DNA from: Burkholderiales bacterium
GTDB lineage: Bacteria; Pseudomonadota; Gammaproteobacteria; Burkholderiales; SG8-39
Direction: 5' to 3'
DNA length: 64,000 bases
NCBI GenBank assembly: GCA_050246035.1
Contig: JBFWWT010000006.1
Coordinates: 6,802-70,801, forward strand
Shown: piece by piece, positions 1,514 through 23,775 of the stretch
Position numbering within the stretch: position 1 is the first letter of the stretch
Layout of the letters: every line of letters starts with the position of its first letter
Program-made: the position numbers and the translations under genes
The notes under the pieces: generated by a model
The model's input: only the letters and a program-made list of their open reading frames with translations
The model's database searches: none
Told to the model about the DNA's origin: nothing

Positions 1514-1857
1514 GAATCTGGGCACTGGTGCGAGATTGTATCAGTCGAGTAGCCGATTGAAACGATAGGAAAAATCATCCACCCCGCGCGCGTCCGTGGC
1601 CGCCGTGCGCTGCGGGGCAGGCGCGCGAACGCTCGGTTTGCGACGGGTTTGGCCGGTCATGAGCGTTCCTCCGGGGATTCGAGCATTGCGCAATCGGCGT
1701 GATGACGCATCTTGCCCGCGCGGGAGCGGTCGGCGCACGCTCGAGCGCCTGCGGCCGCCAACGCGGGTGCCGCTCGTCGCGTTGACTGCGGGACCGCCAT
1801 GTCATCTGGCAAGGACCAGCATTCGTCCACGGCAATGGGCCCGGCGTTGGTCGGTGG

Positions 1858-3197: not shown

Positions 3198-3335
3198 GTA
3201 TTTGCCATAACGCCCCTTGTGCGCCCCCCGGAGCTGAGCGCAGGGGCCGAATGTGGCAGAAACCGCTACTCAGCGACCTGAATCCGGGCGCAATCGCCCG
3301 CATGGTGCGGAACGGACGAGAAGGAAATTCCTATC
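3198..3335 (+). repeat. IS91 right-end (oriIS-like) segment, copy A
   Basis: This 138-nt segment downstream of the tnpA stop recurs at 19547-19684. The first 22 nt are identical and the last 29 nt differ at one position. Confidence 0.6.
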
Positions 3336-3340
3336 TCTGA

Positions 3341-3553
3341 GCGCGCCCGGCGTTTTTCGGGCGCGACCGATGCAAGTCTCGGTAGCTGCCGCTGCGTAAC
3401 GTCGCGTGGCCGCCTGCCACCCGCAAGGCAAGTGCGCGGTACGTTTAGTTCACTTCACGATTGACGCACAGGGCGGCGCCCTCAGGCAGCGGACGTCGCG
3501 AATTGGTGCGCGCGTGCACCCATGATCCGGTGCCAGAGGGGAGGGATTAGTGC
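3341..3553 (-). pseudogene. Remnant homologous to the alkB 3' end plus its downstream flank (copy A')
   Basis: Blocks 3358-3373 and 3487-3553 align with 18494-18509 and 18530-18596. The second block is about three-quarters identical by hand alignment. Homology stops at 3553, where GC drops. Confidence 0.5.
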
Positions 3554-18473: not shown

Positions 18474-18596
18474 CGCGCGGGCCCGCGCCGCTCCGGGCGC
18501 GACCGATGCGGGGGGCAGGGCGCCTCAACCAGCGGACGTCGCGAATCGCCGCGCCCGAGCATCCATGAGCCGGCGCCAGAGGGAAGGAATCAGTGC
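18474..18596. repeat. Copy B' of the alkB 3' end/downstream repeat
   Basis: Aligns with 3341-3553, apart from about 95 nt extra in the left copy. Confidence 0.55.
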
Positions 18597-19652
18597 GGGG
18601 AAGAAGAGCGCCAAGTAGCCCGCTGGCAGCACGGGCATCGATTCGATGTGTCTGAGGTCGTAGTACGGCACGTCCGCGTCCAGGTGATGATGGACGTGAC
18701 GCGTGATGTTCAGCGTGAACGCGTTCGTCATGAAGCCGTTGCTGTTCCAGGAAAGGCTGCCGCGCGGCGGAGCGGGCGCGTCCCGGCTCAAGCCGTAGTG
18801 CTGCGCGTAGTTCACGTACTCGGTCGTGAATATTCCAAACGCAGCCTGGGCAAGAAAGAGCGCCAAGCCCCATGGCCCGCCGATCATCGCGAACACGACG
18901 ATGACGAAGGCGGTGAGAAGCCACTGCTGAACGTATCGATTGAGGACGAGCCGCTGGCGCTTGGCGAGCTGGCGCCGGCGCTCGATCCGCCAGGCGCTGC
19001 GAAGCGTGAACTGGGCATTCTTCGTCACGGCGCCCCAGACGCTTTGGCCGAGGGGCGGGGTGGTGCCTTCGCTTGCTACGCCGACCTTCGCGTGGTGATG
19101 CAGGTGCTCGAACGGAAAGGGGCCGTAGGCGACGGTCGCCATGATCAGGCGGGCGAGGCCCCGATCAAAGGCCGACGGCCAATGCACCAGTTCGTGCGCG
19201 ACGCAGGTCGCGAACGCAGTGGCTATTGCGACCGACACCACGAGCCAGACAGCTGTCGGGCCGGTTGCCTCATAAGCGAGCGTATGCGCAGCCCAGGCCA
19301 GCGTGCCGAGCCACAGAAAGACGTAGAGGCGGGGCATCGTGCGCAACCACGCGGTGGCAAGGCGCGGTGCACTGCTGTCCAGCGGTTCCGTTCGGTCCGG
19401 GCCGATCGCAAGATCCAGCGCGGGTATGCCGACGAACGCAATGGCCGGCAGCAGCCAAGGGACGTCGGCGTAATACCCGACAAGCACGAGCAGAGGAAGC
19501 GCGGGAAACGCGCTGAACGCGAGAAGCTTGCCGTAATACCAGTGGCGTATTTGCCATAACGCCCCTTGCACAGCCCCCTCGACGCCGTGGGCATGACCGA
19601 TTGTGGCACCAATCCACCGCTCAGCAGCCCAGATCCGGCCGCTGACGAGCAT
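18525..19652 (-). CDS. alkB: Alkane 1-monooxygenase-like integral-membrane di-iron hydroxylase (AlkB / fatty-acid-desaturase family)
   Basis: His boxes HELVHW, EHLHHH and ITRHVHHH plus NYAQHYGL. The first ~35 codons of the ORF lie inside the IS91-end repeat, so the true N-terminus is uncertain. Confidence 0.75.
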   Translation of the reverse strand: MLVSGRIWAAERWIGATIGHAHGVEGAVQGALWQIRHWYYGKLLAFSAFPALPLLVLVGYYADVPWLLPAIAFVGIPALDLAIGPDRTEPLDSSAPRLATAWLRTMPRLYVFLWLGTLAWAAHTLAYEATGPTAVWLVVSVAIATAFATCVAHELVHWPSAFDRGLARLIMATVAYGPFPFEHLHHHAKVGVASEGTTPPLGQSVWGAVTKNAQFTLRSAWRIERRRQLAKRQRLVLNRYVQQWLLTAFVIVVFAMIGGPWGLALFLAQAAFGIFTTEYVNYAQHYGLSRDAPAPPRGSLSWNSNGFMTNAFTLNITRHVHHHLDADVPYYDLRHIESMPVLPAGYLALFFPALIPSLWRRLMDARARRFATSAG

Positions 19653-19684
19653 GACGCGGAACGGACGAAAAGGAAATTCCTATC
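19547..19684 (+). repeat. Solo IS91 right-end (oriIS-like) segment, copy B
   Basis: 138 nt in the same orientation as 3198-3335, ending in GGAAATTCCTATC. No transposase gene lies upstream of it. Confidence 0.6.
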
Positions 19685-19773
19685 CCTCGCTTCGCCCGAA
19701 TTCCGCAAGTTCGTCAACATCACGCTCTCCCGCACCAGCCGCTTCGGCGCGTTGCACGGGGCCTTCTGCTGTT

Positions 19774-20487: not shown

Positions 20488-20803
20488 TTTGAAGCCATAG
20501 CACCGACGGCCGAGCGCGTGGGAACTTTCAATTCGAATGCGCGGTCACACTTTCAATCCGGTTGATGCCCGTCATCGCATCCTCGCTCGCAAGAGCGCCG
20601 AAACCGGCCTCATTTCCTGAAAGCCGGTGGCCGCAAGGCTTGGAGATACTCGTTAGCATCAGCCCCTCGGGGCGTCCAGTGCTGCGCATGACGCAATAAT
20701 TCGCGTCCCCCGCGGCAGCGCCTCGTACTGAAACAACCCATCCGGCGCGATCCCTGCGCCAACCCTCGTCCGCATCGCTGCGGCAATTCGTCTGCGCCAA
20801 CAG

Positions 20804-20837
20804 CAGCGTCACTACCCGCTAGTGGGTAGTGACGCTG
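20804..20837. other. 14-bp perfect stem / 6-nt loop hairpin in the ORF-poor spacer
   Basis: CAGCGTCACTACCC-GCTAGT-GGGTAGTGACGCTG. Confidence 0.5.
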
Positions 20838-21555
20838 CGCACAGGTACGCAACGGCGGGGGTTTCCAGCCGATTTTGCCAGTGCCGCAACCCAGTGATGA
20901 GCTCCCTGGCGCATCACGCCGTACAACCGCGCAATGCGGTTCGTCCCTCTGCCCGTTCCCCAACGGGCGTCGTTTGTCCTCGCGCGCACCCCGCGCACTC
21001 CCGAGCCTTGGGTATTGGTTCAACTCGATGGGTCGAGTTCCCACAGGAACCGCCATCGAAGCCAAGAGCGGGTGCAGCCGCGGCGAGCAGCAAAAGGAAG
21101 CACTGCACAAATCGGGAGTGGTGTCCCGGGTCCCTCGTAGATCTCGTTCTGCCTAGGCAGGCGAGACGGACAGAAACACTAACCGGACAGGCAGCACACA
21201 CCAGCAGCAGCAACGCAGCAAGCGGAAGGCAGCAAGACGCGACGGATCGGGTTGGAAAGGGAATCGATGGCAGCTAGCGCAAAGACGGCGAATCGACTGC
21301 AACTGGACTGCAGGCCATTTGCTCTCCGGTGCGTACCAGCGTGAGGCGCTGTGCCTAGCACGCCGGGCAAACGGAACGGTACGGCCGGGGCGCAAGGTGC
21401 GCCCGCCTCTGTTAAGCTCTTGGTTCCGCTACCCGAGGATGCGTTGGTTCCCGGCGAACTCGAACTCATCTGGGCCCACCTTGCGGGGCTCTTGCATCGG
21501 GTAATACCGCCAGAAGTCGATTTCGACCCTTCCTTTGATTCGGAGGCGAACCGCC

Positions 21556-23202
21556 ATGGCCGTAGCCCTGTATGCGCGAGTTTCGACGACTCGCCAAGCC
21601 GAGAACGATCTGTCGATCCCGGATCAACTGCGCCAGCTCCGGGAGCACTGCAAGACCCATAACCTGCCCGTTGCCTCGGAGTACGTGGAACCAGGCGCGT
21701 CCGCGAGCGATGATCGGCGCCCCGTGTTTCAGCAGATGATTGCGGATGCGACGCAGCCGCCTGCGCCGTTCGAGGCGATCCTGGTCCACAGCCGTTCGCG
21801 CTTCTTCCGGGACCTGTTCCAGTTCCTGCACTACGAGAGGGTGCTGAAGAAGGTCGGGGTCAAAATCGTCTCGATCACCCAGCAAACGAGCGATGACGCG
21901 GCCGGCGAAATGGCGAGCAAGCTCTTCAGCCTGTTCGATGAGTACCAGAGCAAGGAGAACGCGAAGCACACCCAGCGGGCGATGCAGGAGAACGCCCGCC
22001 AGGGGTACTGGAACGGCTCCGTGCCGCCCTTTGGCTTCCGGGCAGCAACGACCGAGATCGTCGGGAATCGGGGCCGACACAAGCGCCGGCTCGAGCTCGA
22101 TCCGGTGGAAGCGGAAACCGTGCGGGAGATCTACCGCCTGTACCTCGCCGGCCACGACGGCAACGTCATGGGCATGAAGGCGATCGCGACGCACCTGAAC
22201 CGCCAAGGCCTCACCATGCGCGGGCGCCCGTGGCGCATCCAGAAAGTGAATCGGCTGCTCGCCGACCCGCTCTACGCGGGCTGTTTTTACTTCAATCGGC
22301 GCGACTCCCGGACCCACAAGGAGCGGCCCCAGCAGGAGTGGATCGCGGTAGCGGTCCCGGCGATCATCGATGCCGGCGCCTTCGAGCGGGTGGCAAAGCG
22401 CCGCGCCATGAGCAACCCGAACGCGTTCCCGCCGCGGGCGATGGCCTCGCCCGCACCGCTCGTGGGCCTGCTCAAGTGCGGACACTGCGGGGCGGGGATG
22501 ACCCAGGCGTCTGGCAAATCGGGGCGCTACCGCTACTACAAGTGCACCACGCGCATGGCGCAGAACGTAGATGCCTGCACGGCGAAGAACCTGCCGCGCG
22601 AGCAGACCGATGGGCTGGTGCTGCACGCGTTATCCGAGCGGGTATTCACGCCCAAGCGCGTGTCCCTGATGCTCAACGAGCTGCTGCGGCACCAGCGCCA
22701 GGCGAAGACCGCCGAGGATGCCCGGCTCATCACGATGAAGACGGAACTCGACCGGGCGACGACGGGCCTGGATCGCCTCTATAAGGCCGTGGAGGAAGGC
22801 GCCCTGTCCATCGACGAGACACTGCGCACGCGCACGCAGAAGCTCAAAGCGCGTCGTAGCGAAGTGCTCACCGAGATGGCGAAGCTCAAGGACCGGCAGG
22901 CGCTCGCGGTGCGGCGGGTGAACGCGGACACCGTGAAAGCGTTCTGCGCGGCGCTGCAAGAGCGCTTCACCGACCCATCCTCGGGCCTGGGCAAAGCCTA
23001 CCTGCGCTTGCTGGTGGACGAAATCAAGCTCGACGGGAACGAACTGGTAGTTACGGGCAGCCACCGGCGCCTCGCGGACGCCTTCGGCTTCATGCAGAAA
23101 ACAAAGCTGGGAGAAGTGCCCAGCTTCGTGAATGACTGGCGCGCCCGGCGGGATTCGAACCCACGACCCTTGGCTTCGGAGGCCAATACTCTGATCCGCT
23201 GA
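21556..23202 (+). CDS. Large serine recombinase (resolvase catalytic domain, recombinase domain, zinc ribbon, coiled coil)
   Basis: MAVALYARVSTTRQ catalytic Ser motif, GYWNGSVPPFGF, and LLKCGHCGAGM...YYKC zinc ribbon. GGAGG lies 9 nt before the ATG at 21556. The last ~22 codons are antisense to the tRNA. Confidence 0.9.
   Translation: MAVALYARVSTTRQAENDLSIPDQLRQLREHCKTHNLPVASEYVEPGASASDDRRPVFQQMIADATQPPAPFEAILVHSRSRFFRDLFQFLHYERVLKKVGVKIVSITQQTSDDAAGEMASKLFSLFDEYQSKENAKHTQRAMQENARQGYWNGSVPPFGFRAATTEIVGNRGRHKRRLELDPVEAETVREIYRLYLAGHDGNVMGMKAIATHLNRQGLTMRGRPWRIQKVNRLLADPLYAGCFYFNRRDSRTHKERPQQEWIAVAVPAIIDAGAFERVAKRRAMSNPNAFPPRAMASPAPLVGLLKCGHCGAGMTQASGKSGRYRYYKCTTRMAQNVDACTAKNLPREQTDGLVLHALSERVFTPKRVSLMLNELLRHQRQAKTAEDARLITMKTELDRATTGLDRLYKAVEEGALSIDETLRTRTQKLKARRSEVLTEMAKLKDRQALAVRRVNADTVKAFCAALQERFTDPSSGLGKAYLRLLVDEIKLDGNELVVTGSHRRLADAFGFMQKTKLGEVPSFVNDWRARRDSNPRPLASEANTLIR
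23136..23154. repeat. attR-like direct repeat (within the tRNA-Arg 3' end)
   Basis: Identical to 1495-1513. Confidence 0.7.
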
Positions 23203-23213
23203 GCTACGGGCGC
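23137..23213 (-). tRNA. tRNA-Arg (anticodon CCG)
   Basis: The reverse complement is a 77-nt cloverleaf: acceptor GCGCCCG/CGGGCGC, anticodon stem TTGGC/GCCAA with loop CU-CCG-AA, T-loop GGTTCGAATCC, encoded CCA. Confidence 0.9.
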
Positions 23214-23259
23214 TTTCAAGCTAAAATCATACCTTTATAAACGCCCGACGGCCACGAGC

Positions 23260-23775
23260 ATGAGCGCACCCGAAGAGCATTCCTCGTTCATCAAGACCCC
23301 GCAGCAGCTGATCGTCGTCGTGCTGCTCGCGTTCCTCGTGCCGATCATCGGCATCGTGCTGATCGTCAATCTCGTGCTGTCGCGGCCGGGCGCGGATCCC
23401 GCGGCGCTCGCGCCCGAGGCGGTGGCCGAGCGCATCCAGCCGGTGGGCAGCGTGGCGTTCGCCGGCGCGGCTCCCGGCGCCGCCACTTCCGGCGCGAAGA
23501 GCGGCGAGGAGGTCTACAACTCCGTGTGCGCCGCCTGCCACGGCACGGGCGTCGCGGGCGCGCCGAAGGTGGGCGACAACGCGGCCTGGGCGAAGCCGGT
23601 CCAGCAGGGCTTCGACACTCTGCTCAAGCACGCCATCGACGGCATCCGCGCCATGCCGCCGCGCGGCGGCAATCCCGGGCTCTCGGACCTGGAAATGGCG
23701 CGCGCGGTCGCGCACATGGCGAACCGCTCGGGCGGCAAGTTCAAGGAACCGGCCGCGCCCGCGGCCGGGAAGTAA
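23260..23775 (+). CDS. Membrane-anchored c-type cytochrome (cytochrome c5-like)
   Basis: N-terminal TM helix and a CAACH heme-binding motif. Confidence 0.8.
   Translation: MSAPEEHSSFIKTPQQLIVVVLLAFLVPIIGIVLIVNLVLSRPGADPAALAPEAVAERIQPVGSVAFAGAAPGAATSGAKSGEEVYNSVCAACHGTGVAGAPKVGDNAAWAKPVQQGFDTLLKHAIDGIRAMPPRGGNPGLSDLEMARAVAHMANRSGGKFKEPAAPAAGK

Follow-up and report, generated by a model that had tools for sequence, protein, structure and literature searches.

The window, a stretch of 64,000 nucleotides (nt) from contig JBFWWT010000006.1 of a Burkholderiales bacterium, contains an inserted island that adjoins a tRNA-Arg(CCG) gene, and the gene at that end of the island, which encodes a large serine recombinase (LSR), continues past the island's boundary into the tRNA gene on the opposite strand. 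The original prediction, made from the letters of the window, held that the LSR frame runs antisense through the attachment (att) core into the tRNA, and that integrated and excised forms of the island encode recombinases with different final residues. The features that carry the argument are as follows.

21556–23202, plus strand: open reading frame (ORF) of the LSR, 548 amino acids (aa) from the ATG, assigned by Pfam domains and homologue alignment
23137–23213, minus strand: complete tRNA-Arg(CCG) gene, found with ARAGORN; the LSR ORF runs antisense through its 3' 66 nt
23136–23154, unstranded: LSR-side copy of the att core, an exact 19-bp direct repeat that encodes W528–D533
1495–1513, unstranded: far-end copy of the att core, a displaced tRNA 3' fragment and the exact 19-bp repeat
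1514–23135, unstranded: inserted island, 21,641 bp including one core, recognised by its GC shift, the direct repeat and empty sites
1514–1552, plus strand: C-terminal tail of the joined form, ESGHWCEIVSVE, with its TAG stop, from the in-silico junction of the island ends

Two starts are available to the LSR frame, TTG at 21535 and ATG at 21556 (MAVALYARVS), and the homologues use the ATG. The product contains the Pfam domains Resolvase (PF00239, E = 1.7e-27), Recombinase (PF07508) and Zn_ribbon_recom (PF13408), as well as the catalytic motif YARVSTTRQ, in which R8, S10 and Q14 are invariant across an alignment of 33 sequences. In an AlphaFold2 model, helices 366–413 and 421–448 correspond to the long coiled-coil insert of large serine recombinases. 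It matches PHROG 95 'integrase' (E = 1e-97), and its top NCBIfam match is CcrB, below the NCBIfam cut-off.

The LSR frame has no in-frame stop before 23200. It covers 66 of the 77 nt of the tRNA gene (86%, stop codon included), more than the approximate two-thirds first claimed. The 19-bp core comprises one flanking base, CCA, the discriminator, the 3' strand of the acceptor stem, the 3' strand of the T stem and two nt of the T loop. Past it, the integrated form ends in 15 residues, S534–R548 (SNPRPLASEANTLIR), that are entirely antisense tRNA, DSN being the antisense of the T loop. When we joined the island ends in silico (23135, core, 1514), the frame instead continued into 12 different residues and stopped at TAG (1550–1552), a tail identical to the one predicted for the joined form. 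The window junction, three other islands with both ends located and contigs in attP form (see below) agree that 12–15 final residues differ between the integrated and excised forms, which supports the original claim of different tails.

G+C content is 52–64% between the repeats, while the flanks stand at ~70%. The cargo comprises genes for an IS91-family transposase, a TRAP transporter, a Rieske oxygenase and a LysR regulator, a ring-cleavage operon, an AlkB-like gene and a gene for a RelE/HigB-like toxin, then the LSR; a scan of the island ORFs gave neither a tyrosine recombinase nor another serine recombinase. The empty site is found in three congeneric genomes (L121, L125 and L127). Their flanks are contiguous, overlapping by the 18-nt core, which is present once, and the DctM stop codon is followed by ~8 nt and then by the tRNA 3' end. 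The locus has the Islander signature of an island integrated into a tRNA gene (tDNA), an intact tDNA and a displaced, direct-oriented fragment around integrase-bearing DNA, and relatives retain the uninterrupted site.

Recurrence in a recombinase family

We compared the LSR with its 120 best homologues (51–95% identical, mostly 536–548 aa) and with 80 loci kept from a contig scan of species-representative genomes. The original prediction had proposed to look for a conserved upstream stop among homologues and for tails that change with the insertion site. No upstream stop was found: 104 of the 120 homologues end, in the same frame, in an antisense-tRNA tail of the form W-x4-[D/E/G]-[S/L]-N..., which is the antisense of CCA, the acceptor stem and the T loop. 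Classes of tail match different tRNAs. In 52 of the 80 loci, an ORF longer than 500 codons has a complete antisense tRNA precisely at its end, and the targets are tRNAs for Arg (five anticodons), Asn, Glu, Lys, His and Ala. V521, P522 and W528 are invariant in the 33-sequence alignment, and it is CCA, read antisense, that gives the Trp codon.

These comparisons leave practically no probability for the idea that the tail is a chance read-through or a sequencing error in a protein that ends upstream: the full-length ORF appears in the same frame in more than 100 independent assemblies, the family comparison already refutes the idea, and nothing was found in its favour. At the level of sequence, the overlap and the predicted tail exchange are confirmed as genuine and as characteristic of this LSR family.

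In the LSR tree the targets group by clade, yet they switch repeatedly with good support, for example between Arg and Glu sisters and between Arg and Ala sisters. One metagenome-assembled genome carries two near-identical LSRs (L067 and L077; branch lengths 0.016 and 0.013) at tRNA-Arg genes with CCG and ACG anticodons, and a single type of LSR is apparently able to use two isoacceptor genes. The family occurs in Pseudomonadota, Nitrospirota, Thermodesulfobacteriota and other hosts. Few genomes carry a member: a class-wide sample gave an LSR match at E ≤ 1e-60 in 2 of 400 genomes, the window's own included.

A separate set of LSRs, 28–33% identical, was observed in small Chloroflexota genomes (L088–L116), where they run antisense into tRNA-Ala, Ile, Val, Asn, Met and Glu. 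These proteins use another frame, in which the T loop is read as G-I-R-T. Such an LSR is present in 21 of the 401 genomes sampled, and several have two or three copies. No transfer-messenger RNA was found beside the 30 Chloroflexota loci or in the 64-kb window.

The inferred attachment site and the putative integrase

Both ends could be located for four islands: the window's own and those at L023, L038 and L010. The core stays identical for 18 nt into the tRNA, except in L010, where the identity covers 14 nt. The attP reconstructed from all four reads GTGCCCAG-N13-(18 nt of the tRNA 3' end)-GAAnCTGGGCAC-TGG, and its arms, GTGCCCAGyTTy and rAAnCTGGGCAC, are inverted repeats of 12 nt whose outer edges lie 51 bp apart. 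In the window, the arms and a hairpin that overlaps one of them are placed as follows.

23116–23127, plus strand: P-arm motif GTGCCCAGCTTC, encoding V521-P-S-F524, inverted partner of 1514–1525
1514–1525, plus strand: P'-arm motif GAATCTGGGCAC, encoding E-S-G-H of the joined tail, part of the inferred attP
23093–23129, minus strand: terminator-like hairpin with an 11-bp stem (23119–23129 paired with 23101–23111), followed by a T-rich tail

Six attP sites, reconstructed or directly observed, share the 12-nt arms; in L038 and L085 the P' arm is degenerate. The spacing from the P arm to the TGG is fixed (N13) and conserved in 73 family loci, and the P' motif directly follows the core in L023, L010, L083 and L084. 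The left arm supplies the codons of VPSF and the right arm those of the E-S/T-G-H of the joined-form tail.

The attP junction is directly present in three metagenomic contigs, L083, L084 and L085, whose joined tails are DESGHWSEVPPIP, DETGHWQLSVRC and DETDNYVSAGAL, respectively. L084 is a contig of 5,346 nt with a terminal overlap of 121 nt and one gene split across its ends; as assembled, it is a ~5.2-kb circle, or a tandem, in attP form. It contains a 355-aa gene, a 57-aa gene, the attP-form LSR, an AAA_21/AAA_15 ATPase gene and small ORFs, and represents the element family in minimal form.

The arms are symmetrical about a single base ~5 nt inside the tRNA 3' end. This symmetry would put the crossover near nt 4–6 of the tRNA antisense, and mismatches between the core copies of L010 place it within the first ~14 nt.

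As the only recombinase found in the island, the LSR is inferred from sequence to be the integrase of 1514–23135, and the putative attP lies inside the integrase's own ORF, so that integration would alter the C terminus. It is very improbable that the 19-bp duplication is the work of a tyrosine integrase that acted in trans or has since been lost, with the LSR read-through incidental. Tyrosine integrases typically have long blocks of identity at tRNA 3' ends, the Islander study of 2014 knew of no serine recombinases that target tDNAs (PMC4383910), and four relatives carry a tyrosine-recombinase-like gene (PF12834/PF12835) upstream of the LSR. Yet only 4 of the 80 loci have that gene, whereas the LSR stands at a fixed distance and in a fixed frame from the tRNA end in all of them; the scan of the island gave no tyrosine recombinase, and inverted arms of 51 bp from outer to outer edge would fit an LSR attP rather than the core site of a tyrosine recombinase.

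The PF12834/PF12835 gene occurs in relatives of the window's clade (L085:6760–7623, L004:870–1733, L008:3588–4451 and L083:859–1542) and the window lacks it; the copy in L083 forms one frame with the LSR, giving a fused product of 706 aa. Two other genes are common upstream of the LSR, one of ~355 aa that precedes it in 42 of the 80 loci and one of ~76 aa in 36 of the 80.

L010:8575–9639 and L010:9588–9815: ~355-aa and ~76-aa genes, respectively, also present in L014, L008, L084 and L085

Neither protein has a match in Pfam, PHROGs or NCBIfam, and the ~76-aa protein is a candidate directionality factor. The window island lacks both genes and has ~1 kb of ORF-poor DNA (20504–21555) in their place.

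Traces of related or neighbouring elements were observed at several of these tRNAs. Two loci of the same genus (L118:~526–553 and L119:1031–1081) carry remnants of an LSR 3' end by the same tRNA-Arg, of about 50 nt as DNA and 30–61 codons by protein match; they are scars of lost elements, and that of L119 retains the full hairpin sequence and the P arm. In L023, the chromosomal flank to the left of the displaced core (~1660–1706) encodes Q-V-P-S-F-V-Y-D-W. This stretch is what is left of an older related element, so islands accrete in tandem at one tRNA. In L028, L042, L043, L018, L022 and L026 the LSR abuts a tRNA 3' fragment of ~46 nt that ends in the anticodon loop, as expected if another island has since entered the same tRNA; such fragments are the signature of a second island, probably one with a tyrosine integrase. 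L029 has a fragment of this kind, a 46-nt repeat, at the far end of its island. We rejected it as the attL of the LSR because it ends in the anticodon loop and lacks the P' motif, and it is probably the boundary of another tandem island. Within the window island itself, 3198–3553 and 18477–19698 contain diverged direct repeats (~82% identity) by the IS91-family transposase and the AlkB-like gene.

The exchanged tail

In the explanation that we favour, the island at 1514–23135 would have been integrated into the 3' end of tRNA-Arg(CCG) by its own LSR, through an attP situated inside the last ~110 nt of the LSR gene. The P arm, GTGCCCAGyTTy, is read as VPSF, and after 13 nt comes a copy of the last 18 nt of the tRNA, with CCA read as Trp-528; the opposite strand of this region holds a hairpin and T-run that could terminate the tRNA transcript, and the P' arm, rAAnCTGGGCAC, lies at the other end of the island. 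Having no stop of its own, the LSR frame continues in the chromosome into the tRNA body as far as the first chance stop, and in the excised circle it would enter the P' arm and stop 11–13 codons past the core. The swapped tail would be tolerated, with DNA- and RNA-level functions dictating the sequence. On this explanation the exchanged residues are a disordered passenger, a by-product and not a required switch, and we put the probability of this reading at roughly 0.65.

An AlphaFold2 model built from the 33-sequence alignment (mean predicted local distance difference test score (pLDDT) 80) places the last helix at 503–515 and gives residues 523–543 a pLDDT below 50; the structured part of the LSR is thus predicted to end near residue 515 and the tail to be disordered. 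Integrated tails extend 8–30 residues after the Trp, a length set by the first stop in the antisense of each tRNA species. The tail endings VSVE, DISV, LSL, PIP, VRC and GAL share no common tag. We found no recurrent C-terminal ending or motif in the integrated or joined tails. The residues that recur in this region, VPSF, W and E-S/T-G-H-W, are exactly those encoded by DNA elements.

The tail swap could instead be a regulatory switch of LSR stability, activity or directionality, with the circle favouring integration and the integrated state stabilised, on the model of Mx8 IntP/IntX or of integration-dependent immunity in mycobacteriophages, although we consider this unlikely. The architecture persists across phyla and through repeated switches of tRNA target, all joined tails run 11–13 residues past the core and share E-S/T-G-H/Q-W, there are precedents for an attP within a gene whose protein is altered by integration (PMC6070905), and the same idea was proposed by the authors who described the related recombinase DsiB (PMC3146451). 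The shared residues of the joined tails are, however, the exact codons of the P' DNA arm, and they do not demand a switch because selection on that arm at the DNA level suffices. Integrated tails differ in length and sequence from one tRNA species to the next, neither form has a common degron-like ending, and the predicted disorder of the tail also argues against a switch.

The hairpin on the tRNA strand bears on a different kind of alternative. It begins 8 nt past the tRNA 3' end, inside LSR codons ~513–525, and the window's copy folds with −17.8 kcal/mol (z = −2.8). Using a rule of at least 7 stem pairs and at least 5 T among the 8 bases that follow, with windows inside the same genes as controls, we detected a hairpin with a T-run in 35 of 73 family loci and in 14 of 730 control windows. 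The opposite strand of the same window gave 9 of 73. The distal arm and the loop vary among loci, which fall into two hairpin registers. From its sequence, the hairpin could terminate the tRNA transcript.

One could suppose that the overlap serves expression: convergent tRNA transcription would damp the LSR by interference or antisense RNA, the circle would relieve it, and the embedded terminator would set how far tRNA transcription reaches into the LSR gene. Every member of the family has the convergent layout of LSR and tRNA, the minus-strand hairpin and T-run follow the tRNA directly at about half of the loci, and the hairpin stretch persists in the LSR remnants of L118 and L119, complete in the latter. 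A working terminator, however, would limit antisense transcription and not cause it, and the alphaproteobacterial members lack the T-run. We regard this alternative as improbable.

The most far-reaching proposal combines these elements. It sees a widespread LSR clade specialised for tRNA 3' ends, with a triple-overlap code in which the last ~35 codons are at once attP arm, replacement tRNA 3' end and antisense tRNA terminator, and with a tail that actively tunes directionality or stability: the joined tail (E-S/T-G-H-W) would be active for integration and the tRNA-encoded tail attenuated, stabilising the island. Taken as a whole, we find this proposal quite doubtful.

Several observations weigh against the passenger explanation or its parts. 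Joined tails are narrow in length (11–13 residues after the core) with a recurrent E-S/T-G-H/Q-W, a regularity to which selection on the protein, besides that on the DNA arm, could have contributed. A scan of 22800–23500 for consensus promoters and terminators gave no match, the window hairpin included, and RNAalifold on 33 aligned hairpin regions returned a weak consensus (−1.3 kcal/mol), which we attribute to the merging of the two hairpin registers by MAFFT. The symmetry of the arms about one base, with palindromic central dinucleotides in the window, is unusual for an LSR crossover. Because both upstream genes are missing, the window island may lack a directionality factor and may be unable to excise; its excised form is predicted from sequence.

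Relation to known systems

The closest described system is DsiB, a CcrB-like LSR of ~540 aa from the ssrA-specific islands of Dehalococcoides (McMurdie et al. 2011; PMC3146451). In every case the 3' end of its gene covers the att repeat and continues antisense into the tRNA-like 3' end of the target RNA gene or into the next island; its C terminus is variable and its stop codon was called 'unclear', and the authors speculated that the protein might be fully functional only on the circle (PMC3146451). Compared with DsiB as described, the window LSR is alike in size, in affinity to CcrB and in its antisense run into the 3' end of the target RNA, and its gene overlaps the att repeat in the same manner. 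The two differ in target, which is ssrA for DsiB and here true tRNA genes of six amino-acid classes, tRNA-Arg(CCG) in the window. DsiB islands also carry the small serine recombinase DsiA and syntenic module genes; these were not found among the scanned ORFs of the window island, which include no second, DsiA-like ORF with a Resolvase domain. The window's family, in turn, has a fixed frame (CCA read as Trp), defined attP arms and an embedded terminator-like hairpin. The literature searched does not describe this tRNA-targeting clade, DsiB aside, and its silence is no proof of absence. Judged by sequence features, then, the arrangement is a DsiB-like attP within an ORF, found in a large, mainly proteobacterial clade that acts on true tRNA genes in a fixed frame.

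The Int protein of Mx8 is a tyrosine recombinase. In Mx8 of Myxococcus xanthus, attP lies within int, and integration creates a new 3' end that modifies the specificity or activity of the integrase (Tojo 1996; Magrini 1999; reviewed in PMC6070905). The IntP/IntX pair thus resembles the window in having attP in the integrase coding sequence and a C terminus altered by integration. For Mx8 the effect of the new 3' end has been measured, whereas in the window ~12–15 residues that are predicted to be disordered are exchanged in a serine recombinase, as known from sequence.

The original prediction drew its analogy from temperate mycobacteriophages. In the integration-dependent immunity described by Broussard et al. 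in 2013, attP reportedly lies in the repressor gene, and integration is said to remove an ssrA-like degradation tag. The likeness of an attP within a coding sequence stands; beyond that the analogy is loose, as the protein concerned here is the integrase itself and not a repressor, and no recurrent tag-like ending was seen.

Bxb1, phiC31 and A118-type integrases have the same domain set as the window LSR. Their attP, of ~50 bp with imperfect inverted arms around a 2-bp crossover, may be compared with the inferred attP of the window, which is of similar length with inverted arms but is centred on one base. Their attP lies beside the int gene, their attB is usually in a protein-coding gene, and the identity between attP and attB is short, whereas in the window 18 nt would be shared between the two sites. 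Classical tDNA islands with tyrosine integrases (PMC4383910) resemble the window in their intact tRNA and displaced 3' fragment, in an attP that restores the tRNA and in the adjoining integrase; the window differs in that a serine recombinase ORF itself carries the restoring fragment.

The finding bears on how such recombinases are used, found and annotated. Serine integrases are the main tools for the insertion of large DNA, and their textbook cases target protein-coding genes. A reference work of 2014 did not know them at tRNA genes (PMC4383910). Island finders built around tyrosine integrases at tDNAs may overlook or misassign LSR islands, and in annotation LSR genes acquire host-dependent C termini and overlap tRNA genes. 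As a case of coding constraint, the attP arm and the embedded putative terminator illustrate how functions at the level of DNA can hold protein motifs constant, VPSF and the invariant Trp among them. The tail-swap idea put forward for DsiB in 2011 now has defined pairs of tails, and a clade that acts on conserved tRNA 3' ends in several phyla offers a ready-made attB in many species.

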